This document shows positions 23,797 to 45,279 of a stretch of 64,000 nt of DNA, one piece after another. Location of the stretch: positions 800,001 to 864,000 of the forward strand of contig CAWFFN010000012.1 in NCBI GenBank assembly GCA_963815115.1, given 5' to 3'. A program made the translations under genes and the position numbers. The notes beneath the pieces were generated by a model, which saw only the letters and a list, made by a program, of their open reading frames with translations, ran no database searches and was not told the DNA's origin. Positions within the stretch are counted from its first letter, which is position 1. Each line of letters opens with the position of its first letter. This DNA comes from an uncultured delta proteobacterium. GTDB lineage: Bacteria; Desulfobacterota; Binatia; DP-6.

Positions 23797-26700
23797 TCAA
23801 CCAGAGGCCCGGCGCTGCCCGACGCGGTGCACGAGCTGGTAGAACGTCGGCAGCGCGAGCAGCGTGAACAGGGTCGACGTCACGAGCCCGCCGATCATGA
23901 CGACGGCGAGCGGACGCTCGATCTCCGTCCCGTGCAGGTGCAGCACGAGGAGCGGCAGGAGTCCGAGGATCGCCGTCGCGGCCGTCATCACCTTCGGGCG
24001 CACGCGTCCGATGCTCGCTTCGCGCAGCGCCACGTCGAACGAACTGCCTTCGGCCATCAGCGTCCGTGTCTGCGTCACCAGGACGAGACCGTTCTGGACC
24101 GCGATGCCGAGGAGGCCGATGAGCCCGACCAGCGACGAGACGTTCCAGGTCTCGCCGGCCAGGAGCAGCGCGAGGATCGCGCCGACGAACGCGTCGGGGA
24201 GGGTCGCGAGGATGACGAGCGCTTCGGCCAGCGAGCCGAGGGCCAGGTAGAGCAGGACGGAGACGGCGAGCAGCGCGATGGCGATGGCCATGAGCAGCGA
24301 ACGCGAGGCGCGGGCCTGGGTCTCGACGCGTCCGCCGACGTCGAGGAAGTAGCCCGTGGGGAGGCGAAGCTCCTTCGCGAGTCGCCGCCGCACCTCGCCG
24401 GCCGCCCCGAGCAGGTCCCGCCCCTCGACGCTCGCCTCGACGGCGATCCGCCGGCTGCCGGCCTCGCGCCGGATGCTGGCGGGGCCGAGCGTCTCCTCGA
24501 TGGTCGCGAGCTTGCCGAGCGGGATGCGCGTGCCGTCGTGCCCGTCGATGAGGAGGCTCCGGATTCCGGCGAGATCGGCGCGGTAGTGGTCCTGCAGGCG
24601 CACGACGAGTGCGAACCGGCGCTGTCCCACCCAGACCTCCGACATCTCCTCTCCGGCAAGTCCGATGCGGAGAGCGCGAATCACGTCGCCCGGGGTGAGG
24701 CCGGCGCGGGCGGCGGCGGCGCGATCCACCGTGATGCGGAGCTGGGGAAGATCCGTCAGGCGCTCCACGCGCAGGTCGGCCAGCCCCTCGACGCCCTCCA
24801 TCACGCGCCGCGCCTGGTCTCCGAGTCGCGCCAGCTCGTCGAGATCGCGTCCGAAGATGCGGACGGAGAGATCGGCCGACGTTCCGCCCAGGCCCTCGTC
24901 GATCCGCATTCCGAGCGGCGTCGTGAAGAGGAAGGACACGCCGGGCACCTCGGCGAGCCGGAGCCGCATCCGGTCGCGCAGCTCGTCGAGCGACGCCGTG
25001 CGCTCCGGCCGGAGAACCACCAGGGTGTCGGAGAGCGTGTGCGGCATGGGATCCTCGGTCCGCTCTGCCCGGCCGGTCCGGCGGACGACGTCCTCGACCT
25101 CCGGAAAGCCGCGCAGGATGTCCTCGACCCGGTGGTTCGAGCGGTCCACCTGCTCGATCGACGCTTCGGGGGGCAGCGTCGTCTGGATGAGCAGCGCGCC
25201 TTCGTCGAGCCGCGGCATGAAGTCCGAGCCCACGCGCGAGGCGAGGAGCAGGGCAGGGATCGTGATCGCGAGCGTACCGAGGCGGACTGCGCCCGCGTGC
25301 CGCAGGCAGACGTCCAGGAGCGGAGCGTACGCGCTCTTCAGACGCCGGATGATCCAGACGTCCTCGGGCGTGTCGGGAGGGCGCGGCCGGAGCACGAGGC
25401 CGCCCAGCGCCGGAACCAGCGTGAGGGCGAGGACGAGCGACGCGGAGACCGCCGCGACGACGGCGGCGGCAAGCGGCCGGTACATCCGGCCCTCGATGCC
25501 CGTCATGCTGAAGAGGGGCAGGAAGACCGCGACCACGATGAGCGTCGCGAACGCGATGGGCCGGCCGACCTCGACCGCTCCCTCGACGGCGCGCTGCCGT
25601 CGCGAGTCCCGATCGTGTGACGCGGACAGGCGGTGCACGATGTTTTCCGTCACGATGATCGCGGCGTCCACCAGGAGCCCGACGGCGATCGCGAGGCCGC
25701 CGAGCGTCATCGCGTTGAGGCCGATCCCCGCCGGCCGCAGGAGGAGACCCGAGAGTCCGACGGAGAGCGGGATGGTCGCCGTCACCACCAGGGCGGCGCG
25801 GAGATCGCCCAGCAGCGTGACGAGCGCGACGACGACCAGGAGCGCGCCCAGCAGGACGGCTCGGCCGACTCCGCCGAGCGCCCCCTGCACGAGCTCCGAC
25901 TGGTCATAGGCGATGCGGAGCTGCACGCCGCGCGGGAGCGTGTGGCGGATGTCCTTCACGGCCTCCCGGATGCCGGCCGCGACGGTCACCGTGTCCGCGC
26001 CGAACTGCTTGATGACCCGGCACGCGACGACCTCACCGGCCAGACGGTGGGCGATCCCGCGGCGGACGGCCGGAGCCTCCCGGACATCCGCCACGTCGCC
26101 GAGCAGGACGGGGATGGTGCCCCGGATCGCCACCACGGTCTCGCGGAGATCCTCCGGAGTGTTGATCCGCCCGACTCCTCGTACCGTCCATTCGGTCGCT
26201 CCCTGGACGACGAAGCCACCGGCCGCATTCACGTTCGCGCCCTCGACCGCGTGCAGCACCTCGTCGAGCGTGACGTCCCGCGCCGCCATCCGCTCGGGGT
26301 CGAGCTGCACCTGGTACTGGCGCAGGTAGCCTCCGAGGCGGTCGATGGCCGCGACGCCCGGCACCGCAAGCAGCCGGTTCTTCACCTCGAACTCGGCGAG
26401 GTCCCGCAACGTCATCAGGTCCGCGACTCCGGGCTCCGCCTCCAGGGTCACCTCGAAGATCTCGTTGAGGCGTCCCGTGAGGCTCGAGACGAGCGGTGTG
26501 TCGGTGCCGGGAGGCAGCTGGCCGACGACCTGGCTGACGCGCTCGCTCACCAGCTGGCGCGAGCGGAAGTAGTCTGCGTCGGGCTCGAACTCGATCGTCA
26601 CCTGCACGACGCCGAGCTGCGACGTCGAGCGCACCCGGCGGATGCCGGGGAGCCCGGCGAGCGCGACCTCGAGCGGAATCGCGATGCCGGTCTCCAGCTC

Positions 26701-26907
26701 CTCCGGTCCCATCGCCGGGTTCTGCGCGATGACGTTGAAGACCGGCGTGGCGAGGTCGGGGAAGACGTCGCGCGGCAGGTCCCTGAGCCAGATGGCCCCG
26801 AGCAGGCTTCCCGCGAGAGCGAGGACGAGGGCGAGTCCCGGACGCCCGGACGAGCGACGGATCAGGCGCTCCACGATGCCCGCCTTCGTCCGGGGTTCAG
26901 TGCTCAT
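23797..26907 (-). CDS. czcA: Heavy-metal efflux RND permease (CzcA/CusA family)
   Basis: 1036 aa; 'DVFPDL', 'TLGGLAIAVGLLVDAAIIVTENI', 'GIEGRMYRPLA', 'FMPRLDEG', 'RVRPKVMTA', 'PLAVVMIGGL'. Substrate not determinable from sequence. Confidence 0.92.
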   Translation of the reverse strand: MSTEPRTKAGIVERLIRRSSGRPGLALVLALAGSLLGAIWLRDLPRDVFPDLATPVFNVIAQNPAMGPEELETGIAIPLEVALAGLPGIRRVRSTSQLGVVQVTIEFEPDADYFRSRQLVSERVSQVVGQLPPGTDTPLVSSLTGRLNEIFEVTLEAEPGVADLMTLRDLAEFEVKNRLLAVPGVAAIDRLGGYLRQYQVQLDPERMAARDVTLDEVLHAVEGANVNAAGGFVVQGATEWTVRGVGRINTPEDLRETVVAIRGTIPVLLGDVADVREAPAVRRGIAHRLAGEVVACRVIKQFGADTVTVAAGIREAVKDIRHTLPRGVQLRIAYDQSELVQGALGGVGRAVLLGALLVVVALVTLLGDLRAALVVTATIPLSVGLSGLLLRPAGIGLNAMTLGGLAIAVGLLVDAAIIVTENIVHRLSASHDRDSRRQRAVEGAVEVGRPIAFATLIVVAVFLPLFSMTGIEGRMYRPLAAAVVAAVSASLVLALTLVPALGGLVLRPRPPDTPEDVWIIRRLKSAYAPLLDVCLRHAGAVRLGTLAITIPALLLASRVGSDFMPRLDEGALLIQTTLPPEASIEQVDRSNHRVEDILRGFPEVEDVVRRTGRAERTEDPMPHTLSDTLVVLRPERTASLDELRDRMRLRLAEVPGVSFLFTTPLGMRIDEGLGGTSADLSVRIFGRDLDELARLGDQARRVMEGVEGLADLRVERLTDLPQLRITVDRAAAARAGLTPGDVIRALRIGLAGEEMSEVWVGQRRFALVVRLQDHYRADLAGIRSLLIDGHDGTRIPLGKLATIEETLGPASIRREAGSRRIAVEASVEGRDLLGAAGEVRRRLAKELRLPTGYFLDVGGRVETQARASRSLLMAIAIALLAVSVLLYLALGSLAEALVILATLPDAFVGAILALLLAGETWNVSSLVGLIGLLGIAVQNGLVLVTQTRTLMAEGSSFDVALREASIGRVRPKVMTAATAILGLLPLLVLHLHGTEIERPLAVVMIGGLVTSTLFTLLALPTFYQLVHRVGQRRASG

Positions 26908-28102
26908 GCTGATCCCCCTCGCCGCGGGACTTCTCGGCCTGCGCCTTCAGCAGGAAGGCGCCGTCCACGACGACCTCCTCTCCCGCCCGGATGCCAGAGA
27001 GGATCTCGACGGCTCCGCCGAGGTCGCGGCCCCGTCCGACGATCCGGACCTCGAACGTCCCCGCGCCACGCGGCACGAAGACGCACCAGCCTCGGGCCAG
27101 CCGTTGCAGCGCCGGCGCCGGCACGGCGAGGACGCTGGGCGCCTGATCCTCGACGGGGAGGGTGGCCGTGGCCGACATCCCCGGCCGGAGGATGTCGTCG
27201 CGGTTCTCGATCTCGACACGCACGGTGACCGTCTTCGATTGCGCCTCGACCTGGCGTCCGACGTTGGTGACCGGACCCGCGAAGGTGCGACCGGGAAGCG
27301 CCGCGAAGACGACGCGTGCCGTGGAGCCCGGCGCGAGGCGCACGGCGTCGCGCTCGAATGCGTGAACGGTCAGCCACAGCCGGGAGAGGTCGGCGATGCG
27401 GTAGAGCGGGCGGCCGGGCTCGGCCATCTCCCCCTGCGCCCCGCTGCGCTCGATCACGGTGCCCGCCATCGGCGACCGCAGGAGGAACGTGGAACTCTCA
27501 CGGCGAGACACCTGGGCGTTTCCCGGCGCGATGCCGAGGGCGTTCAGCGCCGCTTCCGCCGCGGCGGCATCGGCCCGTGCCGTCGTGGCGGCGGCTTCGG
27601 CTTCCTCGAGCTCGCGCCCTGGCGCGATCTGCTCGGCCACGAGTGCGCGTTTGCGCGCCAGCGTCCGGAGCGCCAGCTCGAGCCGCGCCCGCGCCCCCAG
27701 CAGCTGCGCGCGTGCCTTCCCCAGCTCGGGACTCTGCAGCTCCACCAGTGGCTGGCCGGCGCTCACGCGGCTCGCCGGAGGGACGCGCATGCGGAGGATG
27801 CGGGCGGAGACGGGCGAGGAGACGATCGCGTAGGAGTCCTCGTCGGGCCCGAGATCACCGAGCACGGAGACGCCCTCGACGCCTTCCCGTTCCTCCGCCC
27901 GGGCGGTGGTGAGACGCAGATCGCGCAGCATGTCCGGCTCGATGCGCAGGAGGTCGCCGGCGGCTGGCCCGGGCTCCGAACGCTCCGGCGCCGCGTGGTC
28001 GCTCTCGACGTGCTCGTGCAGCTCGCTCGGGGCCTCGCCCTCGCGGCACGCGGAGAGGGCCGCGAGCAGACAGACGATCGGGAGAACGGCGATGGCCCTC
28101 AT
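26897..28102 (-). CDS. czcB: RND periplasmic adaptor (CzcB/CusB family), lipoprotein
   Basis: Lipobox LSAC, His-containing N-terminus, 'LRSPMAGTV', 'IADLSRLW', 'LRPGM', 'VVVDGAFLLK'. Confidence 0.9.
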   Translation of the reverse strand: MRAIAVLPIVCLLAALSACREGEAPSELHEHVESDHAAPERSEPGPAAGDLLRIEPDMLRDLRLTTARAEEREGVEGVSVLGDLGPDEDSYAIVSSPVSARILRMRVPPASRVSAGQPLVELQSPELGKARAQLLGARARLELALRTLARKRALVAEQIAPGRELEEAEAAATTARADAAAAEAALNALGIAPGNAQVSRRESSTFLLRSPMAGTVIERSGAQGEMAEPGRPLYRIADLSRLWLTVHAFERDAVRLAPGSTARVVFAALPGRTFAGPVTNVGRQVEAQSKTVTVRVEIENRDDILRPGMSATATLPVEDQAPSVLAVPAPALQRLARGWCVFVPRGAGTFEVRIVGRGRDLGGAVEILSGIRAGEEVVVDGAFLLKAQAEKSRGEGDQHEH

Positions 28103-29322
28103 CGCAGCACCCCCGCCATGGTCTCGAGGTCGAAGCGCGCGCGCGCCGCATCGAGCTGCCGGGCCGTGTAGGCGAGACGCGCGTCGAGAATCTCGCGACG
28201 CACGGCGAGGAGATCGGGGAGGTTGGTCTGTCCGAGCTCGTAGCTGCGGGTGGCCAGCCGGTCGCTCTCGTCGAGCAGCGGCAGCGCGTCCCGCTGGAGC
28301 TCCTCGACCGCGTCCACCTCCCGCTCGTACGCGTCGAGCGCGGCGCGCACGTCAGCGGCGGCGGCACGGCGGCCGGACTCGAGCGTCAGACGGAGTCGGC
28401 GCGCCCGCGCCGACGCGGTCGCCCGCTGCTCCTGGCCGGTGACGAACACCGGAAGGGTGATGCTCAGTCCGGCAAGCGGGACGTTCGCCTCTTCCTCCCG
28501 CTTGTAGCCGAGCCGCACGCCGACCTCCGGCCAGCGCGACGCTTCCCCGAGCTGTCTCTCGGCCTCGGCCTCGCGGAGCTCCGCGTCCAGCGCGCGGAAG
28601 TCCGGCCGATCCGTCACGATCTCGAGCAGGGAGCCGAGCCGGTACCTCGGCCGATCGTCGAGCGACCCGGTCACCGCCAGCGGCTCGTCCGGCTCGAGTC
28701 CCAGCAGCACCCGGAGGTCGCCGAGCGCGCGGGCCTGCTCAGCCTCGGCGTCGCGGACCTCGGCGCGTGCTCTCGAGGCAGCGATGCGGGCGGCATTGAC
28801 GTCGAGGATCGCCACCTCGCCGTTCCGGTGGCGCCGCTCGGCGATCCGCACGAGATCGGCGGCGATCTCCGACGCGCGCGTGCGCAGGCGGGTCTGCTCG
28901 CCGGTCGCGAGGCCCCGGGAGAACGCGACCGCCACCTCGCGCAGCAGCCGCCGCGTCTCGTCGTCGGCGCCGGCGCTCGCGCGGTCGACGCCGGCCTCGG
29001 CGCCGGCGATCCGGGCGCCCCGCTGGCCGGCCAGCTCGAGCCCCTGGCGCACGTCGAAGTCGACGTCGGTGCTGCGTCCCTGCCTGGAGAAGCTGGGACC
29101 GGCGGCCGCCTCGACGACCGGGTTCTGGCGCAGCAGGACCGATGCTCCCCGGAGCCGGCCACGGGCCTCCGCGACCCGCTCGCGGGCGGCGAGCACGGCG
29201 GGGGCGTGCTCCCTGGCGATGTCGAGCGCGCGCGCGAGGCTGAGCAGCTCGGCCGATCGCGCGCACGGTGCCGAGAAGCCGACGAGGACGCCGGTGAGTA
29301 CGAGCGTACGGAATGAGACCAC
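28099..29322 (-). CDS. czcC: TolC-family outer-membrane factor (CzcC-like)
   Basis: Signal peptide, 'QNPVVE', 'GLSITLPVF', 'SYELGQTNL'; overlaps the czcB start. Confidence 0.88.
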   Translation of the reverse strand: MVSFRTLVLTGVLVGFSAPCARSAELLSLARALDIAREHAPAVLAARERVAEARGRLRGASVLLRQNPVVEAAAGPSFSRQGRSTDVDFDVRQGLELAGQRGARIAGAEAGVDRASAGADDETRRLLREVAVAFSRGLATGEQTRLRTRASEIAADLVRIAERRHRNGEVAILDVNAARIAASRARAEVRDAEAEQARALGDLRVLLGLEPDEPLAVTGSLDDRPRYRLGSLLEIVTDRPDFRALDAELREAEAERQLGEASRWPEVGVRLGYKREEEANVPLAGLSITLPVFVTGQEQRATASARARRLRLTLESGRRAAAADVRAALDAYEREVDAVEELQRDALPLLDESDRLATRSYELGQTNLPDLLAVRREILDARLAYTARQLDAARARFDLETMAGVLR

Positions 29323-29462
29323 GGGTCACCTCTTTTGAACCCGGCGGGCGAAGCGCCGGGTGCGAGACCGATCACGACGGCGGCGCGGTCGAGGTCTCGA
29401 CCACGTCGCGGCGCCTGGAGGGCAGCGCGGAACGCGCTACCCGACGGCGAGACGTGAGCGGC

Positions 29463-33895: not shown

Positions 33896-34623
33896 GGGGC
33901 GCGGCGATCGTCGGGGCCGGCGACTACATCGGCGCCGCGATCGCGCGCAGGTTCGCCGCCGAGGGCTACACCGTCTTCCTCGGCCGCCGTCACGGCGACA
34001 AGCTGGCGCCCCTCGTCGCCGACATCGAGGGGCGGGGCGGCCGTGCGATCGGCCGCTCCCTCGACGCCCGCAAGGAAGACGACGTCACGGCCTTCCTCCG
34101 CGAGGCCGACGCGGCGGCCCCCCTCGAGGTCTGCATCTTCAACGTCGGCGCGAACGTGAGCTTCCCGCTCCTCGACACCACCGAGCGCGTGTTCCGGAAG
34201 GTGTGGGAGATGGCGTGCTACGGCGGCTTCCTGACGGGTCGCGAGGCGGCGCGGCTCATGCTGGCGCGCGGCCGCGGCAGCCTCTTCTTCACCGGTGCGA
34301 CGGCGAGCCTCCGCGGCGGGCCCGGCTACGCCGCCTTCGCGAGCGCGAAGGCCGGCCTGCGCATGGTGGCGCAGAGCGCCGCGCGGGAGCTCGGGCCGCG
34401 CAACATCCACGTCGCCCACCTCGTCATCGACGCCGGCGTCGACACCGCCTGGGTGCGCGAGCGCATCGCCGAGCGCGTGGGCGCCGACGCGGTGACGCAG
34501 CTGGCGCCGGACACGCTGATGCGGCCGGAGGCGATCGCCGACGCCTACTGGCACCTCCACCAGCAGCCGCGCGACGCGTGGACCTTCGAGCTCGAGATCC
34601 GACCCTTCGCGGAGACCTGGTGA
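33892..34623 (+). CDS. Atypical short-chain dehydrogenase/reductase
   Basis: 'IVGAGDYIGAAIA', 'FTGATASLRG', FASAK in place of YxxxK; GTGA overlap with the upstream stop. Confidence 0.85.
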
Positions 34624-34626
34624 GCG

Positions 34627-35253
34627 ATGGTGCACGCGGAGTTCCACTTCGACTTCGGCAGCCCGAACGCCTACCTCAGCCATCTCGTGCTGCCCGACCT
34701 CGAGCGGCGCACGGGCGTCCGGTTCGAGTACGTGCCGATCCTCCTGGGCGGCATCTTCAAGCTCACGAGCAACCGCTCGCCGGCCGAGAGCCTGGCCGGA
34801 ATCCGCAACAAGCCCGAGTACGAGCGCCTCGAGATGGAGCGCTTCATCCGGCGCCATCACATCACGCGGTTCCGCCAGAACCCGTTCTTCCCCGTGAACA
34901 CCCTGGGGCTCATGCGCGGCGCGATCGCGGCGGGCGAGCTCGGGGTGTTCGAGCGTTATGTCGACGAGGTCTTCCGGCACATGTGGGCGGAGCCGAAGAA
35001 GCTCGACGACCCGGAGGTCCTGCGCGCGGCACTGCTCGAATCGGGTCTGGACGCGGCACGCCTGCTCGAGCTCGCGCAGACGCCGGCGGTCAAGGAGCGG
35101 CTGCTCGCCAACACCCGGCGCTCCGTCGAGCGCGGCAGCTTCGGGTCCCCGACGTTCTTCGTCGGCGACGAGATCTTCTTCGGGAAGGACCGGCTGCGGG
35201 ACGTCGAGGAGGCGATCCAGGCGGCCGCCGGGTCCCGCCCGGACGGCGCCTGA
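34627..35253 (+). CDS. 2-hydroxychromene-2-carboxylate isomerase / kappa-class GST family protein
   Basis: 'FDFGSPNAYL', 'PILLGGIF', 'GSFGSPTFFVG...FFGKDRL'. Confidence 0.88.
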   Translation: MVHAEFHFDFGSPNAYLSHLVLPDLERRTGVRFEYVPILLGGIFKLTSNRSPAESLAGIRNKPEYERLEMERFIRRHHITRFRQNPFFPVNTLGLMRGAIAAGELGVFERYVDEVFRHMWAEPKKLDDPEVLRAALLESGLDAARLLELAQTPAVKERLLANTRRSVERGSFGSPTFFVGDEIFFGKDRLRDVEEAIQAAAGSRPDGA

Positions 35254-35265
35254 GCGGCCGGCGCC

Positions 35266-35985
35266 TCAGAGCCAGCCGCGCAGGAGCGGCTCGTCGTCGT
35301 CCTTGACGATGTGCCGCAGACGCTCGATGCACGGCGCGCGGAGCTGTGCTTTCACCTGCCGGTAGGCGGGGAACGCCGCCAGCCGGCGCGCTTCCCGTAC
35401 CGCCTCGTCGAGCAGCTCCGCCTGGTCGACGATCCGGTCGATGATGCTCGCGATCGGGGGCTCGTCGGGTGCCCCGGTGCGGGTCGTGAGCGTCAGCAGG
35501 CGCGCCGTCTCCGGTGACAGCTCGCTCTGGACGACGGCGAGCGGACCGGCGGGAAACGGGAAGCCCGCCTCCGCCTCCGTGAGCCCGAGCTTGAAGGCGC
35601 CGCGCGCCGCCAGCCGGAGGTCGCAGGCGAGCGCGAGCACCAGACCGCCGCCGAGCGCGTGACCCGAGATGGCCGCGACCACGGGCTTCGGCATCCCGTA
35701 GAGCTGGCACGTCATGCGGTTCACCGAGCGCAGCAGATCCGCATGCTGCAGCCGCGTGTAGGCCGGCACCTCGCGCATGTCGATGCCCGCCGAGAAGACG
35801 CCGGGCACGCCGGTGAGCACGACCGCGGCGCACTCCGGGTCGCCTCTCACGTCCCGCAGGGCCGCCAGGATGTCCGCGACGAGACAGCGGTCGAGCGCGT
35901 TCACCGGCGGGCGGTGCAGCGTGAGGACGTGCACGCCGTCGCGGCGCTCCACCCCGACCAGCTCTCGCTCGCTGGCTCGCGTCAT
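35266..35985 (-). CDS. Enoyl-CoA hydratase/isomerase (crotonase) family protein
   Basis: 'PPVNAL', 'FSAGID', 'PKPVVAAISGHALGGGLVLALACDLR'. Confidence 0.88.
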   Translation of the reverse strand: MTRASERELVGVERRDGVHVLTLHRPPVNALDRCLVADILAALRDVRGDPECAAVVLTGVPGVFSAGIDMREVPAYTRLQHADLLRSVNRMTCQLYGMPKPVVAAISGHALGGGLVLALACDLRLAARGAFKLGLTEAEAGFPFPAGPLAVVQSELSPETARLLTLTTRTGAPDEPPIASIIDRIVDQAELLDEAVREARRLAAFPAYRQVKAQLRAPCIERLRHIVKDDDEPLLRGWL

Positions 35986-36203
35986 GGGCACTCCGGGTCC
36001 CTCCCCATCTCTCCCACGACTCCCCGTCGGTGTCGACCGGTTCAACACGCGAGCCTTCGAGCTCGACGATTCGATCGTCCAGGCATCGTCGCATAGACGA
36101 TGCTCGGATCGCCGGGGCCGGAGCCCGTTTTCGCTTCCGCCGCCCGGGTATTCTCGCGTAGAGTCTCCCGTGCCCCGCATCAGGCGCGGCAGATTGGAAC
36201 GAG

Positions 36204-39200
36204 ATGACTGCTTCCTCCCCGCGCCAGTGGGTCGTCGGCGGGGCCCTGGCGCTCCTCCCCCCTGCTCTGTCTCGCGAGTCCCGGTTTCGCACAGCCGACC
36301 GCCGATCCGTACGTCACGGCGCAGGCGGCGACCCTGGCCCACGACCCGTCCCGGCTCTTCACGTTCGTCCGCGACGAGATCTCCTTCGAGGCCTACGCCG
36401 GCTACCTGCGGGGAGCCCGCGGGGCGCTCTGGACGCGGGGCGCGAACTCGCTCGACCGCGCGGCGCTCCTGGCAGCGCTCCTGCGCGCGTCGGGCGTGAC
36501 CAACGTTCGGTTCGCACACGCCCAGCTGACCAACGACCAGATCGTCCAGCTCGGACGCGCCATGCTGCCGGCGCCGTCACGGGCGTTCGGCTGCCCCACC
36601 GGCTTCCCCTACGACCCCGCCGGCGACGGCGTCCTCTACAACCTCCTGCGCGATCACTACTGGGTTCAGTTCGACGCCGGCGGCGGGTTCGTCGATGCGG
36701 ACACCAGCTTCGCCGGCTTCACCCTCGGGCAGACCGTCGCCACTCCGCTCGACACCTTCACCGACATTCCCGCGACCCTGCGTTCCCGCGTCACGGTGAA
36801 GCTCGACGTCGAGACCTACAGCCAGGCGGGCGCGGCCTTCGCGCTCTCGCCGTTCGGCACCAGCACCGTGCTGACGCGGGCCTTCGACGCGGCCGACCTG
36901 GTGGGCAAGCCCGTGTCGGTGAGCGCGTTCGTGCACGCTTCGGGGGCAGCCAGCATTCCCTTCAGCGCCACCACCTTCACCTACACGCCCTATCTGCTTC
37001 TCGGGCAGGGCGATGGCTCGATCGACGACGACCCGCTCGTCGTCGGCAACGACTTCCAGGACGTCTACACCAACTTCCCGCTCGGATCGCAGCTCGTGAC
37101 CGGCCTCACGCTGTCGCTCGACCTGCAACCCAACGCGTTCAGCGCCGTGCAGCACCTGGAGCGTCGCATCTACGATCGCGTCGGGTTCGTCACCCGCCAG
37201 CAGGGCGGCCCGGTGGACGTCAGCGGCACGCCGGCGCCCGTCGTGACCGACTTCGACGTCACCACGGTGAACGTGCTGCCCGGCCGCATGGCGCTCGAGG
37301 CCTTCGGCCCGCAGCAGGACCGGCTTGGAGCCGTCCAGTCCGCGCTCCAGGCGCTGCAGCCCGGGCTCGGCGGCGTCACCCCCGGCGGTCCGTACACCGC
37401 CGATCAGCTCGTGCTCCTCCGCCAGCTGTCCGAGCGCTCGCGCGCGGTGGACATCGCCAACGCGGAGACGCTCACCATGGGCTACCTGGCGACGACGGAC
37501 GCGGCCGAGGCCCAGCTCGCGCGCGGCTATCTCGTCCGTCCGGTCGTGGACTCGCCTCGCGTGGTCCTCGCCATCAGCTCGAAGCGGGGTGACGATGCCA
37601 CGCTGGAGCTCGACGTCCTGCGCAACGCGCTGCACGTGTTTCCGCTCACCGGCCAGATGCCGAGCGTCACCTCGGCCTTCGAGGTCGCGCGCGGCCTGGA
37701 GGCGTCGTTCCTCGAGGGCGCCGTGATCGGCCGCGTCACGGGGCAGTCGCCCGTCTCCATCCGCGAGGTGTTCCAGGCCGCCGCCGACTCGCCGACCAAC
37801 CAGTTCGCCGTCATCACGGCCGACGACCTGGACGTGCTCGACGGCCTGGCGCTCTCTCCGGAAGCCAAGGCGCGCATCGCCGACGCCGCCGGCGACCGCA
37901 AGGTGATCATCACGCCGACCGAGATGGTGACGGTCGGCGGGCAGACCACCGTCGGCTGGCTCGAGACCGAGGACGGGGGCCGCACGATCAGCGTCTTCGA
38001 GCACGGCGGCCACCAGGCGCTCGTCGGCTACGCCGGATCGCTCGAGTTCTCGGCGGAGTTCAACAAGCCGATCGCGAACTTCATCGGCAAGGTGGCGGCG
38101 TTCGGCCAGGTGGGCCTGGTCTACACCGCTGCGGTGCTCGATGCGGTGGCCGAGGGCGGCGGGTTCGGCGACACGATCAAGGACACCAAGACCTCGATCA
38201 AGGAGCTCGTCGAGAAGGTGAAGCAGGCGAAGGGCTTCTTCGACAAGCTGAAGAAGGCGTACGAGAAGCTGCAGCTCGACACGAAGGGCTTCGGGCTCAT
38301 CGGCGAGCTGGCCAAGGGACTGACCGACGGCTTCGACATGGCCGAGCGCTTCTTCGACTTCACGACGCCGGGTGATCCCCCGGCCTTTCCCTTCCTGGTG
38401 AGTGATCTCACCGCGGGCGATCCGCCGGTGACCCCGGGAGCGCAGCCCGGCGTGGACGTCACGCTCGAGCCCGACCCGTTCTTCACCGTCGACACGGGCG
38501 GCACCCAGGTGCCGAGCGTGTTCCGCGCGCGGGTCCGCAACACGGGTCCGACCGCCGCCAGCTTCGCGCTGACCTTCCCGACGCCGCCCGCCGGCTTCGC
38601 GCTGCGCGCCGCGCTCTCGCCGCTCCCGGTGGGGCCCGGAGAGACCGGCGAGGTGAGCGTCTGCGCCACCCCGAACGGCGGCCTGGCGGCGCCCGGCACT
38701 CCCGCGACCGTCAACCTCCAGGCCGCGGCCGGCGGCGCCCAGGACACGGACTCGTCGGGGTTCGTCGTTCCCGCGGTGGCCGGGGTCGATCTCACGCTGA
38801 GCCCGGCCGAGGTCTCGGTCACGCCGGGAGGGTCCTTCCCGGTGACGCTCGGGCTGCGCTCGCTGGGCAACGTCGCGACGAGCGTGGACCTGACGCTCTC
38901 GGCGCCGGCCGGGGTGACGGTCACGGGACTCTCGTCGCCGGTCGCGCTCGATACGGGAGCGATCGCCTCGCAGGCGCTCGTCGCCGGCGTGGGCGCGGGC
39001 GTGGCAGCCGGCAGCGACCTGGTGGTGACCGCGACGGCGTCGTTCGGGCCGCCGGCCGCGCGCCAGCAGGTGGCGCAGCTTCTCCTCGTCCACGTCGTGA
39101 CGTCCTCCACGCAGTGCGCGGGTGCCGCCGCCGCGGTTGCGAACTCGATCGGCCGCACCGGACTGGGCGACGTGCTCGCCTCCCTCGGCGTCGCGGCCAT

Positions 39201-42200
39201 CGCGCTCGGGGCCGATCCCGCGAGCGCCGGCGCGCGCGCCGGAGTGCTCGCGTATCTCGATCGAGGCCTCCAGCTCCTCGACGGCCCCGCCGCGTTCGCC
39301 CAGGGCCGGAGCGAGCTCCAGGCCGTGCGCACGGCGCTCGCGGCCGCCGACGCGGGCACCGTCCCGGGCGTGCTGGCCAGCCTGAACCTCGCCCTCTGCC
39401 ATCTCCAGGGCGTCTTCGACGGCGCCGACACGCACGCCTTCGCGCTCGTCATCAACCCGAACACCCGCGAGGTCCTGCCGAACTCGCAGACGACCTTCGC
39501 GGTGACGATCGGCAACCAGAGCAACGTGACGCGCACGTTCTCGCTCGGGCTGAGCGGCCTGCCCCCGGGCGTCACCGGGCATCTCAGCCCGACCAGCCTG
39601 ACCCTCAGCCCCTTCTCCTCCAACTTCCCGCCGGTCACGCTCACCATCGATCCGATCGCCGGCGCCCTGGCGCCGTTCGACGTCGTGGTGACCGCAACCG
39701 ACGCGCTCGCGCCGGTTGCGCAGCGTGCCGTGACGGCCTCCGTGACCGTCCGGCCGGAGCTGGTACAGGTGGTGGACGTGAGCCCGACGCCGGGGTTCGC
39801 GGAGCCCGGCAGCAGCGTCTCGGTCCGCGTCCGGCTCTACAACGCGGTGAACCGGGCGCGGAACGTCGACGTGTACGTCGGCTTGCAGAATGCGGCCGGG
39901 CAGGACGCGATCTTCCCGTTCTTCGCCGGCAGGGTGGCGCTCGACCTGTCGGCGAACATCCAGACGCTCGACGTGCCGGTGAACCTGCCGGCGCAGCTCG
40001 CGCGCGGCCCGTATCGCTTCACCGCGCTCCTGCGCGACGGCGACCCCATCCCGGGCGCGACGGGTGCGGGACCGTTCTTCGTGGGATCGCCGCTCGCCGC
40101 GACCGTCACCGTTGCACCGCAGCTGGTCGGTCCGGGCACCTCGACCGTGCAGACCACGCTGGCGATCCAGCGCGACGCGGTGCCCAACCCGACCGCCGAT
40201 CTGCTCGGCGCGGTGCAGACCGAGGGCGGGCGAGCCAAGAGCGTCGCCGTGAACGGCACGTACGCCTACGTGTGCGGCGAGACCGAGGCCAACGTCGTCG
40301 ACGTCAGCAATCCGGAGCAGCCGGTCCTCGTCCGGACGTTCGGGACGTACGATGCGCAGGTGACCGGCAGCTTCTCCGCCGCCACGTGCACGGTGTTCGA
40401 CGGCCATCTCATCATCGGCTTCGGCACCGGCTTCGAGGCGGGGGGGGCGTTCGTGCCGATCCGGGTGGCGGTGTACTCGCTCGCCGACCCCGCGAACCCG
40501 TCGTTCGTCTCGCAGACGGCCTTCGAGCGCCAGATCGGCGGCGGCCCGGCGTTCTTCACCGGCAATGTGGGCTGGATCCCCACCAGCGCATACTTCTACA
40601 ACCCGTTCTCGGGCTTCATCTTCGAGCAGTTCGGCGACCTGTTCGGCGTGGACTTCACGAACGTCGGCAGTCCGACGCTGCGCGGCCGGCTCTTCCCGCC
40701 CCTGCCGACCGAGACCGACCAGGGCCACATCTGGGGCGGTGGCGAGAACATGATCTTCGGCGCGCTGTCCATGCCCGGGAACCGCGCCTACCTCGCCACC
40801 ACCACGTCCGCCGACGGGACGCCCGAGGTGGGGCAGGGGAAGCTGCTGGTGGCCGACCTGTCCGACCCGGACGCGCCCGCGGCCGGCGCGCAGGTCATCG
40901 TGCCGGAGGCGCGCCTGCTCCAGGGGATCGCGGCCGACGGCAGCGGCGTCCTCGTCGCCGGCGACACGCTCGGCTTCTACGACGGCCGTTCCGGACTCGT
41001 CGGCACGCTGGTCCTGAGCCTGCTCGACGCCAGCAACCCGGCCAGTCCCGCGATCAGCCAGACCCTCGTGACCCAGCTCACCGACAAGGACGGGACGACG
41101 GTCGTCGCGCTCGGCGGCGGCCACTTCGCCGTCGGGGGAGCGAAGCGCGGCGATCAGCCGGTGCTCGTCCTCGTCGACGCGTCGAATCCGGCGAGCCTGC
41201 GCTACATCCCGTACGACGTCGGCGCCCCCATCCTGTCGATGCAGCGTGTCGGCAACCTGCTCTACGCGACGAGCAGCCTCGGGCTCGCGATCTACCAGCT
41301 CGACATGATCGACGGCCCGCGGCTCACGGCACGGGTGCAGGTGCCCACGGGGACCGGGGTGTCCCTCGTGCCGGGATCGTTCAGCCTGCCACCGACGGAG
41401 GTGATCCCCGGCGACGGCAGCGACACCTATGTCTGGGACCAGCCGCTCGACGACTCGATCTCCTGGTCGCAGCAGGTCGCGAACGTCGCCGCGGGCGCGA
41501 CGCGCACGGTGGTGACGGGCGGCGAGCTGGACTACACGGTGCCGACGCTCGGCGCGGGATCGCTGCAGCTTCCCGCCGCGTACGTCCAGGGCACCCGGAT
41601 CCTCGGCATCGATCCCCCGACCCGCACGTTCGTCCAGGTCGGGACCCCGGCGACCTACACGGTCAGCGTGAGGAACCCGACCGGCACGCCGGTCGCCTTC
41701 TTCCTCGGCGTCACCGGCGTCCCGCCGGAGTGGGTCTCGCTGGCGCCGTCGGTCGACGTCCCCGCGGGTCAGACGGTGCAGGTCACGCTGACGCTCACCA
41801 GCGACCTTGCCGCGCAGACGTTCCACGACGTGGGCTTCAGCGTCGTCGCGTCGGGCGGCGGCTTCTCGGACCAGGTGTTCGGGACGCTCCAGGTCTGGAA
41901 TCCCCCGGACCTCGGTCCGAACAACGGCGCGCAGGCGTTCGGGTTGTCGCTCGAGACGACCCCGTCCGTGCTCGTCACGGGACGCGGCACCGCGGCGCGC
42001 TTCGTGGCGCGCTTCATCAACGTCGGGAACGTCGCGGACAGCTACACCGCGTCTCCTCAGCTCCCCGGCGGCTGGTCGGCGAGCGCGTTCCCCGCAGGCG
42101 GACTGATCACACTGCCCGGACCGGCCAACGCGCGCGAGGCCGTGATCCAGCTCGTACCGCCGCAGAACGCCGCCCCGGGCGGCTACGACGTACCGATCGG

Positions 42201-43590
42201 CGTCTTCTCGAACGCCGGCAACCTCGGGGCGAAGGGGACGGTGCACGTGACCGTATCGGGCTCCGGAGTGTCGGTGTTCGTCCTGCCGTTCGGCGGCACG
42301 CCGGCGGACCACTACGTCCTCCGCGTCCGCAACACCGGGACCGTCGCCGATACCTTCGCCCTCGCGCTCGCCGGCGTCATGGGTCCGGTGAGCACGCTCG
42401 CGACTCCGACGGTCACCCTGAATCCGGACGAGCAGCGGGACGTTCCGATCACGTTCCTGGGCGTCCCGCCGGTCCCGCCCGGAACGGTCCAGCTCGTCGG
42501 CGGAGCCACGTCGCAGAGCGAGCCGGCGGTGACGGCGAGCGCAGCGGCGTCGGTCACGCTGCCGGCGCTGAAGGGCGTGGCTGCGGCGCTGGTTCCGGCG
42601 GAGCGCGAGCGGTCCGGGCCGGGTTCGGCTGCGTTCGCCTTGCAGGTGCAGAACACCGGCAACGTCGAGGACACCTACGTCGCCACCGTCATGGACACGA
42701 CTGGCGGCCTCGCGGCCACGCTGCGGGATCTCGCCGGGGCCCCGGCGCAGTCGGTGTCGCCGGTGCGGCTGCCCGCGTTCGCCGGCGGCGGCCTCACGCT
42801 CGACTCGACCCTGCCCGCGCTCGGCGAGGGCACGGTGACCGTGGCGATCACCTCGCTCAGCGACGCGACGAAGACCGCGATCGTGACCGCGCGCCTGCGT
42901 GCGGTCGAGGTCACGACGACCACCACGACGACGTCGCCGGCGACCTCGACGACGATCACGACCACGACGACCATCTCGCCCTCCACGAGCGTTCCCATCA
43001 CGGTCTCGACCACGACGCAGGCCGGCGCCACGACCACCACGCAGCCGAACGCCGCCCTGGAGATCTGCGGAAACTGCGAGGACGACGACGGCAATGGCCT
43101 CACCGACTTCGAGGATCCCGCGTGCTGTGGCGAGGGGTCGGCGAGCCTGGCGCTCAAGCGGATACGCATGACGCCGAAGAATGCCGCGACCAGGCTCCTC
43201 CTCGTCGATACGCTCACCGGCGCGGTCGCACCGAGCAGCCAGCATCTCTTCATCCAGCTGCGCGTCGAGGGGGGCGAGGAAGTCCTCTGCGCGCGGATCC
43301 CCGCCGGTGGCTTCACCGGCAAGAAGAAGACCTTCCGCTGGACGGACAAAGGCGGCCTCGTGGCGCGCGCGCTCGGGCTCCAGAAGGTCCAGCTCCGCAT
43401 CGCCAGGAACGGCGCGGTGCGGATGACCGCAGCAGGCAAGGCGGTCCGCATGCAGACGCCCGCGCCGGGTCGCCTGCAGGTGACGATCGGGCTCCAGAAC
43501 GCCACGCCGGTGGACGAGCCGGGGCGTTGTCTGTCGGCCGGGGCGACGTGCAAGGCGAAGGGAAAGAAGGGCGCGCTCAAGTTCCCGTGA
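36204..43590 (+). CDS. Giant secreted multidomain protein (~2460 aa): transglutaminase-like domain, Ig-like repeats, LVIVD propeller, Thr linker, basic C-terminal domain; one-base frameshift at C6 tract 36257-36262
   Basis: The main frame is open from 36208 to 43590 and includes 'FVRDEISFEAYAGYLRGARGALWTRGANSLDRAALLAALLRASG' upstream of the track's GTG at 36496. The ATG at 36204 is in another frame and encodes the first half of a signal peptide. Confidence 0.8.
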
Positions 43591-43707: not shown

Positions 43708-45279
43708 GTGTTCCATCCACTCCTCGTCGAGAAGGACGTCGCGATCGGGCTGCGCGACGGCGGAACCATCCTCGCGAACGTCTTCCGTCCCGCGGACGAT
43801 GGCGAGTTCCCGGTCATCATAACGCTCGGCCCCTATCCCAAGGACATCCACTTCAGCGACTGGAACCCGGCGGCCTGGCGCCGTCTGCCGGAGCAGAACG
43901 AGCACATGCACTGGGAGACGGTGGACCCGGAGTGGTGGGTGCCGCAGGGCTACGCCGTCGTGCGCTGCGACTCGCGCGGGACCGGCAAGTCACCAGGCCG
44001 GCCGCGGCTGCTCTCGCGCGCCGAGGCCGAGGACTTCTACGACTGCGTCGAGTGGGCGGGCACGCGACCGTGGAGCAACGGCAAGGTCGCCGTCATGGGA
44101 GTCTCGTACTTCGCCATGAACTCGTGGCGCGTCGCGGCGCTGCAGCCTCCCCATCTGGCCGCGATCGTTCCGTGGGAGGGCGCGGTTGACCTCTACCGCG
44201 ACGCGAATCGCCACGGCGGCATCTACTCGAGCGGCTTCATGCGCGCGTGGGGTGGTCACACGCGCCGCTATCAGACGGACGGCGGCGCCTCCGATCCGGC
44301 GCCGCTTCCGCCGGAGACGGTGACGGAGCTGTTCGCCCGCAACCATCCGGACCTCGCCGCCATCCAGGTACCGCTCCTCTCCGCGGGCAACTGGGGAGGG
44401 GCGGGTCTCCACCTGCGCGGGAACGTCGAGGGCTATCTCGGCGCCGGCTCGGCGCAGAAGTTCCTGCAGATTCAAGTCGGCGATCACGTGGGCCCGTTCT
44501 ACTCGCTCGAGGGCCGCCTCGTGCAGCACCGCTTCCTGGAGCACTTCCTGCGGGGCGTCGACACCGGGATCACGCGCGAGCCGCCGATCCGGCTCGCGAT
44601 CCGGCGCGATCACGACACCTATCGCTGGCGCTACGAGACCGAGTGGCCACTCGCCCGCACGCAGTGGACGGCCGAGTACCTGGACGCCGCGGGTCAGGGC
44701 CTCTCGACGATGCGGCCGGACGAGCCGCACGCGGTGCGCTACGACGCAGAGCCCGGCGCCGCGCCGTCGAGCGTCCGCTTCGCAACCCCCCCGCTCGAGC
44801 AGGAGATCGAGGTGACCGGCCCGATCAAGCTCAAGCTGTGGGTCTCGACGACGAGCGACGATGCCGATCTGTTCGCGATCGTGCGCAACCTGCGCCCGGA
44901 CGGGACGGAGGTCACGTACCCGGGTCCGCAGCCCCAGAGCGAGAGCAAGGTCGCCGTCGCCTACGGCTGGCTGCGGCTGTCACACCGCAAGCTCGACCCG
45001 GAGCGCTCGACTGCCTATCGCCCGTATCACACCCACGACGAGATCCAGAAGGTACATCCCGGCGAGATCGTGCCGGTCGAGATCGAGATCCTGCCCACCA
45101 GCGCGATCTTCGAGCGCGGCCACCGCCTCGTCATCGAGGTCGGCGCCAAGGACGACCCGATCATCTTCTTCCAGCACGACGATCCGCGCGATCGGGTCCA
45201 GCGCGGCACGGTCACCCTACATACGGGCGGAGCGTTCGACGCGCACGCTCTGCTGCCCTTCATTCCGCAGCCGTCATGA
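43708..45279 (+). CDS. CocE/NonD family serine hydrolase (peptidase S15-like)
   Basis: 'LRDG..I.ANVFRP', 'DSRGTGKSPG', 'WSNGKVAVMGVSYFA', 'PPHLAAIVPWEG', C-terminal PepX-like domain. Confidence 0.92.
   Translation: MFHPLLVEKDVAIGLRDGGTILANVFRPADDGEFPVIITLGPYPKDIHFSDWNPAAWRRLPEQNEHMHWETVDPEWWVPQGYAVVRCDSRGTGKSPGRPRLLSRAEAEDFYDCVEWAGTRPWSNGKVAVMGVSYFAMNSWRVAALQPPHLAAIVPWEGAVDLYRDANRHGGIYSSGFMRAWGGHTRRYQTDGGASDPAPLPPETVTELFARNHPDLAAIQVPLLSAGNWGGAGLHLRGNVEGYLGAGSAQKFLQIQVGDHVGPFYSLEGRLVQHRFLEHFLRGVDTGITREPPIRLAIRRDHDTYRWRYETEWPLARTQWTAEYLDAAGQGLSTMRPDEPHAVRYDAEPGAAPSSVRFATPPLEQEIEVTGPIKLKLWVSTTSDDADLFAIVRNLRPDGTEVTYPGPQPQSESKVAVAYGWLRLSHRKLDPERSTAYRPYHTHDEIQKVHPGEIVPVEIEILPTSAIFERGHRLVIEVGAKDDPIIFFQHDDPRDRVQRGTVTLHTGGAFDAHALLPFIPQPS

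Follow-up and report, generated by a model that had tools for sequence, protein, structure and literature searches.

A predicted transglutaminase-like domain lacking the catalytic cysteine at the head of a giant protein from a delta proteobacterium

Inactive transglutaminase domains that have lost at least one residue of the catalytic triad are described in RHS polymorphic toxins (Zhang et al. 2012, Biol Direct 7:18; PMC3482391). The sections of that paper dealing with these domains place them always directly past a signal peptide or a transmembrane (TM) helix, with the RHS repeats coming after them and bacterial immunoglobulin (Ig) domains as occasional neighbors. The same sections propose that the inactive domains act as peptide-binding anchors. 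Here, we analyzed a gene for a giant protein with a transglutaminase-like domain at its N-terminus. The gene is located on a 64,000-nucleotide stretch of an uncultured delta proteobacterium (contig CAWFFN010000012.1, positions 800,001 to 864,000), which is called the window in its entirety. The domain carries serine at the position of the catalytic cysteine, and an earlier note made from the letters alone had suggested that it could be either a Ser-His-Asp enzyme or an inactive scaffold. We give a probability of about 0.6 to the reading that it belongs to a non-catalytic binding or anchoring head, which forms the mature N-terminus of a giant exported, adhesin-type protein. Residues are numbered from the first codon past the upstream stop (36208). 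The frame and the main parts of the head are:

36208–43590, + strand: giant-protein frame from stop to stop, 2,460 codons plus the stop (43588–43590)
36286–36786, + strand: predicted transglutaminase/papain-like domain without the nucleophile, residues 27–193 (AlphaFold2 model, VIA-align, Pfam)
36409–36423, + strand: R-G-A-R-G loop, residues 68–72, near-invariant in the giant family
36448–36450, + strand: Ser81 (codon TCG), the catalytic-Cys position by profile alignment to 3isr, at a helix N-terminus
36655–36657, + strand: His150 (codon CAC) in the H-x-W-V strand (family counts, TgpA alignment)
36700–36702, + strand: Asp165 (codon GAC) in the D-P-S/T motif, invariant in 52 of 52 sequences
36787–38037, + strand: associated region, residues 194–610 (about 415 residues), predicted to comprise beta-sandwiches and a long helical hairpin plus an alpha/beta sub-domain with an E-x-G-G-H motif at its end
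38005–38016, + strand: G-G-H-Q motif, residues 600–603, closing the folded head (G600 in 52 of 52 sequences, H602 in 45 of 52)

Residues 26–700 were modeled with AlphaFold2 from 27 homologues (predicted local distance difference test, pLDDT, 83.3; predicted template modeling score, pTM, 0.85). The model was compared by VIA-align with 48,161 PDB representatives. Model residues 2–168 resembled transglutaminase-like cysteine peptidases: PeiW (8jx4; Z 11.0, root-mean-square deviation 3.2 Å, 127 aligned residues), LapG (4fgo; Z 10.8), TglA (9crn; Z 10.8), PeiP (8z4f; Z 10.4), 3isr (Z 10.3), and 3kd4 (Z 9.8). Foldseek returned no PDB match for the head model at E ≤ 1e-3. It gave probabilities of 0.99–1.00 for 3isr and CPR-C4, though at E values of 0.16–0.3, and when its own candidates were re-scored by VIA-align, LapG 4fgq reached Z 11.0 and 3isr Z 10.9. 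On the sequence side, Pfam Transglut_core (PF01841) matched residues 36–162 at E 0.032, with 15 bits, below the gathering cut-off of 23. A word-indexed search with residues 25–620, in which 8,000 candidates were scored, found 55 proteins at E ≤ 1e-3, and a precomputed PF01841 match was present in 37 of them. Six homologues were rescanned; five scored 30.9–38.3 bits for PF01841, and P0013 had no PF01841 match at E ≤ 1e-5. A single-sequence search of residues 1–631 against PDB gave one chance-level match (E 1.4), and Protein Atlas placed the head only among "transglutaminase domain-containing" or hypothetical clusters. The model comparison confirmed a predicted transglutaminase/papain-like fold for residues 27–193, despite the weak Pfam score. 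The earlier note had let its reading depend on such a fold appearing in a structure prediction, and it appeared at a VIA-align Z of 10–11.

To set the register at the cysteine position, a profile of 20 family members was searched against PDB sequences. The profile stretch "aGNalD.asLliALLrAsgiparY" aligned onto 3isr (E 0.083), with "aGNalD" over "AGVCRD" and Ser81 on the cysteine. A second stretch, "hyWVef...alDp", aligned onto "HAWVEY...VDP" of TgpA 6g49 (E 0.48), with His150 in the HAWVEY motif. The E values of both alignments are weak; their register matches that of the AlphaFold2 model. In the model, a helix (model residues 56–69) begins with Ser81, His150 lies in the strand at model residues 124–130, and Asp165 is placed just past the next strand. 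The strings quoted in the earlier note were all found in one + strand frame, YAGYLRGARGALWTRGANSLDRAALLAALLRASG at residues 63–96, DHYWVQFDAGGGFVDAD at residues 149–165, and ...GWLETEDGGRTISVFEHGGHQA ending at residue 604. The note was right in reading serine at the catalytic-Cys position, as the alignment of Ser81 over the cysteine of AGVCRD indicates.

Conservation was counted over 198 aligned stretches from 195 of 196 proteins, and over a smaller alignment of 52 sequences. At position 81, the 198 stretches had Ala in 87, Ser in 83, Thr in 10, Pro in 6, Asp in 4, Met in 2, Gly in 1, Asn in 1, and gaps in 4; Cys was found in none. The 52-sequence alignment gave a similar picture (A 24, S 17, P 5, T 4, M 1, N 1). 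Near relatives also differed from each other, with Ser in G000, G003, and G019, Ala in G007 and G005 (two genomes of the same taxonomic family), and Pro in P0005, at 52% identity. Position 150 was His in 174 and Tyr in 21 of 195 aligned residues, and Ser81 and His150 occurred together in 76 of the 198 stretches. Other positions were nearly fixed over the 198 stretches: N80 in 191, D83 in 193, W152 in 193, and D165 in 187, as well as R68 in 187, G69 in 194, A70 in 168, R71 in 183, and G72 in 191 of the RGARG loop.

The Cys-His-Asp triad of the transglutaminase-like superfamily was lacking, with no Cys at the nucleophile position of any member examined. A conserved nucleophilic serine, as in serine hydrolases, was not found either (Ser in 83 and Ala in 87 of the 198 stretches). 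Cys129, the one other cysteine with partial conservation, was considered as a relocated nucleophile and rejected; it is Cys in 33 of 52 sequences and otherwise Tyr, Phe, Leu, or Val, a pattern that would fit a buried hydrophobic position. Judged from these alignments, the giant family has no conserved nucleophile, and Ser81 is one of several tolerated small residues. Within a core of about 2,200 residues, conservation was highest in the motif GSLRGARGTLWS.AGN.LD.ASLL.ALLRASG, and the head was the most conserved portion between orthologues, indicating that the cleft motif is probably still under selection. As Cys never occurs at position 81, Ala and Ser exchange freely there, and His150 can be Tyr, an inactive scaffold is favored over a Ser-His-Asp enzyme. 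Of the two alternatives of the earlier note, the inactive scaffold gained support from the free exchange at position 81, and the Ser-His-Asp variant found none as a property of the family.

The associated region was modeled alone with high confidence (pLDDT 92.1, pTM 0.88). The earlier note had described a region of about 450 residues associated with the domain, and its conservation as a partner of the domain held in 51 of 51 full-module homologues; it was also present in the 150 best representatives, evident fragments aside. Several residues were invariant (E202, P261, D323, E503, P570, W584, and G600), and D469 was conserved in 50 of 52 sequences. Pfam and NCBIfam gave no family match for this region. 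VIA-align of its 417-residue model reached a best Z of 6.4, with none of the 48,161 chains at Z ≥ 8, Foldseek against PDB gave no match at E ≤ 1e-3, and Protein Atlas gave no match at 0.9 or above. A likeness of the helical part to TcaA/TcdA (Z 6.0–6.3) was rejected, as it is under the noise level that VIA-align states for helical bundles. The match lists were dominated by generic helical matches to the hairpin, and the beta-sandwich part (model residues 1–164) was barely probed. Because the beta parts are poorly covered for this reason, we make no claim of a new fold. The region of about 415 residues is predicted to fold confidently, matches nothing solved or catalogued in these searches, and seems undescribed.

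The predicted head ends sharply. Model confidence dropped below 50 straight after G-G-H-Q, at model residues 584–596, and a linker follows.

38092–38148, + strand: Gly/Ala-rich hydrophobic helix, residues 629–647, in the linker past the head (Kyte-Doolittle 19-residue mean 1.61)

After the linker with this helix come a Pro-rich stretch and the first Ig-like domain. A 19-residue segment with a Kyte-Doolittle mean of at least 1.6 was present in the linker of 30 of 51 family sequences. The linker segments of some family members reach 2.4–3.0, the range of transmembrane helices; the helix may touch the membrane or be buried.

The head belongs to a large family. Among the 55 proteins of the word-indexed search, 51 (2,235–4,172 residues) matched nearly the whole module of about 580 residues, and the other four were RHS-repeat proteins (P0055–P0058) that aligned over its first part only. 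An exhaustive search with residues 26–611 against 1.84 billion representatives found 4,185 matches at E ≤ 1e-3, 1,545 at E ≤ 1e-10, and 388 at E ≤ 1e-30, a result well outside what chance would give; short proteins among them are likely fragments at contig ends. We collected 195 carriers of the domain, with a median length of 2,769 residues. At least 2,000 residues were found in 156 of them, and the transglutaminase-like domain began within the first 300 residues in 186. Named members came from records of Methylomonas, Betaproteobacteria, Pirellulales, Gemmataceae, and Anaerolineae. Matches were present in 7 of 41 related genomes, the window's own counted, and that genome holds one copy of the gene. 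When the query was added to an alignment of 50 homologues, a collinear core of about 2,230 residues was followed by variable tails. This core of about 2,200 residues is common to several hundred giant proteins and seems undescribed; no paper dealing with either the giant family or the 415-residue region was found, in a literature search that mostly did not extend to subscription journals.

The remaining parts of the giant protein are:

40225–40344, + strand: LVIVD repeat, residues 1340–1379, in a beta-propeller-like region (Pfam PF08309, E 1.6e-10)
41653–41847, + strand: Ig-like domain of the FixG_C type, residues 1816–1880 (Pfam PF11614, E 2e-14), one of several Ig-like repeats
42913–43047, + strand: Thr/Ser/Pro-rich linker, residues 2236–2280, read from the translation
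43048–43587, + strand: C-terminal tail, residues 2281–2460, an acidic Cys-rich motif plus a domain of about 150 residues, without an assigned family

Residues 2236–2280 are almost all Thr, Ser, and Pro, which is typical of an extended and possibly glycosylated stalk. The Pfam scan of the C-terminal tail gave no match, and the NCBIfam model acid_disulf_rpt matched weakly (17.3 bits, cut-off 41). The tail is common to the window protein and the G003 and G007 orthologues and is replaced in G019; no abrupt drop of identity was observed between near orthologues. It ends in ..GALKFP in the window protein and in ..GGLRFP in the G007 orthologue, and the G019 tail is different, Cys-rich, and helical. 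C-terminal domains in relatives were PKD, REJ, discoidin, NPCBM-associated, DUF11, MBG, RTX, dockerin, VWA, and TSP3. The homologues P0010 and P0053 have a precomputed PF13243 match in their variable part.

On the preferred reading, residues 27–193 would be a catalytically dead transglutaminase/papain-like domain, which has kept the cleft architecture (G-N-x-x-D at the helix start, the H/Y-x-W strand, and the D-P strand) and lost the nucleophile. The family-specific region of 415 residues would join this domain in a single compact head, about 580 residues long, with which the mature form of the 2,460-residue protein begins after Sec export. Past the head come the linker with its hydrophobic helix, the Ig-like domains, the LVIVD propeller, the Thr-rich stalk, and the variable tail. 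The role of the head is most likely non-enzymatic. It would bind a peptide or another envelope ligand and in this way keep the giant protein on the cell surface or assemble it there, and the variable C-terminal end would carry outward-facing binding domains. The analysis shows the predicted fold, the missing Cys, the pattern of conservation, the placement past a signal peptide, and the domain architecture; ligand binding, anchoring, and the orientation of the protein are what we infer from them.

Several points weigh against this reading. How the protein would cross the outer membrane is not evident from the neighboring genes. A chemistry without Cys would also fit the strong conservation of N80, D83, W152, D165, and the RGARG loop. 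The triad is placed by the model at the level of secondary structure, which reaches neither distances nor the question of whether the cleft lies open or under the 415-residue region. For all members, the proposed role is drawn from the architecture and from the proposal made in one paper, in its sections on the inactive domains (PMC3482391). Finally, the gene is frameshifted as assembled, and the protein may not be exported or made in this genome.

The frameshift is located upstream of the head. The frame 36208–43590 had a third-position guanine-plus-cytosine (GC) content of 0.93 in a window of 72% GC, indicating that it is coding. The list of open reading frames (ORFs) puts the gene start at GTG 36496, the first in-frame start, which falls past the G-N-S-L-D helix. 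The earlier note had remarked that the ORF track misses the first motif. This was correct, as the listed start is downstream of the motif, and the reason is that ATG, GTG, and TTG are all absent from the frame between 36208 and 36496. A start was found in another frame:

36204–36262, + strand: ATG start and opening stretch of the signal peptide, MTASSPRQWVVGGALALLPP, whose frame runs one base ahead of the main frame
36257–36262, + strand: run of six C where the start frame meets the main frame, an apparent +1 frameshift in the hydrophobic part of the signal peptide

Past the meeting point, the main frame continues with PLLCLASPGFAQP. In G003 and G001, relatives of the same genus, the orthologues open with an in-frame ATG or GTG and a signal peptide that runs right up to D-P-Y-V, the conserved beginning of the module; the signal peptide of the window gene is therefore frameshifted by a net +1. 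D33, the first invariant residue of the head, comes right after the ..ASPGFA/QP end of the signal peptide, and likewise in the G003 and G001 orthologues, in which the signal peptide is intact. Behind the frameshift at the six-C run lies an error of the assembly or else a mutation of very recent date, and a homopolymer assembly error would be the simplest reading. Contigs of three public runs (one study) contained parts of 36000–36600, with 36105–36377 outside their coverage. A search for RNA runs holding this stretch found none. The intact G003 orthologue is 88% identical over the head region, and its identity over the full length is 65–92% by 100-residue blocks. In G001, the orthologue (G001:C6, about 218297–221758) is spread over two open frames, of 674 and 883 residues, that overlap; its frameshift falls inside the head region. 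An Rfam scan of 34500–37000 gave nothing of note.

Four other explanations were weighed. The gene could be a pseudogene in this genome, with a real +1 frameshift in the signal peptide and a protein that is not made or not exported. Its ATG at 36204 is out of frame with the 2,460 codons, the first in-frame start lies past the G-N-S-L-D helix, and the G001 orthologue is likewise split into two overlapping frames. However, the frame is otherwise unbroken over 2,460 codons and keeps its third-position GC of 0.93, its head region stays close to the intact G003 orthologue, and a break in a run of six C is presumably a typical place for an assembly error. We consider a pseudogene unlikely. An active Ser-His-Asp enzyme, here and in the Ser-bearing relatives, is very improbable. 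It would use Ser81 as the nucleophile for self-cleavage, hydrolysis, or cross-linking, and Ser81, His150, and Asp165 do stand where a genuine transglutaminase-like fold has its canonical triad, with Ser and His found together in 76 of the 198 stretches. An essential nucleophile is expected to be as invariant as N80, D83, and W152 are, yet position 81 is most often Ala, can be Pro, Thr, Asp, Met, Gly, or Asn, and differs between close relatives, and Tyr replaces His150 in 21 stretches. We know of no active Ser variant of the transglutaminase-like fold, although no search was aimed at one.

A new, Cys-independent center is a possibility that we regard as doubtful. In this case, the remodeled site (RGARG, G-N-x-x-D, H/Y-x-W, and Asp) and the 415-residue region would together act in catalysis or bond formation, for example in covalent attachment to the envelope, or in processing at the E-x-G-G-H boundary beside the Gly/Ala-rich hydrophobic helix. 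No stretch of the whole protein is more conserved than the remodeled site, a pattern unusual in a relic active site, and the invariant charged residues of the partner region (E202, D323, and E503, with D469 nearly so) could join a composite site. G600 is invariant, H602 is nearly so, and disorder starts right after them. Nevertheless, such a center has no precedent, no conserved nucleophile was found, and no cleavage products were in evidence. The heads linked to RHS repeats keep G-N-x-x-D and H-x-W but have neither R71 nor the partner region, so a composite catalytic site cannot be the function common to both architectures. The shared motifs suggest that the cleft serves the function common to the RHS and giant architectures, and the RGARG loop may instead contact the partner region. 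The sharing of the head with RHS-repeat proteins also raises the question of a polymorphic toxin with an unrecognized C-terminal toxin domain, and the tail does vary between relatives, that of G019 being different. We hold this to be highly improbable. Pfam and NCBIfam scans of the giant protein showed no RHS repeats, DUF6531, or known toxin domain, the tail is kept across G000, G003, and G007 without a sharp drop in identity, relatives have adhesion or carbohydrate-binding domains as their tails, and the gene downstream codes for an S15 peptidase and not for a small immunity-like protein.

The genes flanking the giant gene are:

35269–35985, − strand: enoyl-CoA hydratase gene on the upstream flank (ECH_1, E 8e-42)
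43708–45276, + strand: S15 X-Pro dipeptidyl-peptidase gene, 117 bases downstream

A DsbA-like gene is also present upstream in the window. The neighborhood was compared between the window and the loci of five relatives; for one of them (G001), the locus covered the upstream side plus one distant downstream ORF only. No neighbor was conserved across the window and the five loci, G001 being represented essentially by its upstream side. The genes observed included DsbA-like, enoyl-CoA hydratase, S15 peptidase, cytochrome c, TetR, AurF-like, TonB-dependent receptor, and AMP-binding enzyme genes. Beside the giant gene, no conserved secretion or processing gene was seen in the window, at four of the relatives' loci, or on the upstream side of the fifth (G001). 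The idea of the earlier note that the head defines an export or processing module gained no support from these neighborhoods, and no evidence of cleavage at GGHQ was found. Farther upstream in the window, positions 23800–29325 of the − strand encode an outer-membrane efflux protein (OEP) together with an AcrB-type resistance-nodulation-division (RND) transporter (E 1.3e-248), which indicates a two-membrane bacterium.

Giant exported proteins are among the least understood genes of environmental bacteria, and the limits of one large family of them are now set, at 388 representative clusters at E ≤ 1e-30. The first third of the head of about 580 residues would belong to a known class of inactive transglutaminase domains, and the remaining 415 residues are unmatched and are a good target for structural work. 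Serine at the cysteine position is one of several interchangeable small residues and appears to be no mark of a new catalytic triad, which corrects a tempting misreading. If the anchoring role is true, the head would be an annotation marker for the cell-proximal end of giant proteins. If a Cys-independent center is true, the head would be a new attachment or processing module of several hundred giant surface proteins in many phyla.

Compared with known systems, the window domain is like PF01841 Transglut_core in its predicted fold, in the motifs of helix and strands (..A.LL.ALLRA.GIPARY.., H.W.E, D.P), and in the retained His and Asp. It differs in that the defining Cys is gone in every family member examined, and the window protein itself scores below the cut-off of that family. 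LapG, PeiW, and PeiP, the best structural matches (Z 10.4–11.0, 120–129 aligned residues, 14–19% identity), are active Cys-His-Asp enzymes that stand alone, with about 150–300 residues, whereas the window domain has no Cys and heads a protein of 2,460 residues. The resemblance to a stand-alone periplasmic Cys-His-Asp protease of the LapG type is one of fold only. Eukaryotic inactive transglutaminase-like domains (protein 4.2, Rad4/XPC, Cyk3p, and DRC7/CEP76) put the same fold to use without catalysis, as binders or scaffolds. The VIA-align matches at Z 6.0–8.6 included axonemal proteins, band 3-protein 4.2, and XPC, but the architecture and cellular context of the eukaryotic domains are unrelated to the window protein, and no specific sequence relationship was shown.

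The closest likeness is to the heads of the RHS toxins. P0055–P0058 matched residues 23–154 of the window protein at E values from 4.3e-7 to 9.5e-4 and share the motifs G-N-D-x-D and H-x-W with it. They carry RHS_repeat, DUF6531, and Transglut_core (P0055 and P0057 were rescanned), with the head past the N-terminus. Two features of the window protein are missing from them, R71 of the RGARG loop and the 415-residue region, with no match beyond about residue 154. The identity of their motifs with those of the proteins in Figure 5D of Zhang et al. (2012) could not be confirmed. Like the inactive domains in the sections of that paper cited above (PMC3482391), the window head has a predicted transglutaminase fold with a catalytic residue lost. 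Also as there, the window head stands directly past an N-terminal signal peptide, its own being frameshifted as assembled, and is followed by a long filamentous array. Unlike the toxins described in those sections, the window protein has neither RHS repeats nor a recognized toxin domain; Pfam and NCBIfam scans found no RHS_repeat, DUF6531, or toxin families in it, and Ig-like, LVIVD, and Thr-rich parts are present instead. As the window protein departs from the description of Zhang et al. (2012) in its RHS and toxin parts, it would represent a new architectural variant with a known kind of head.

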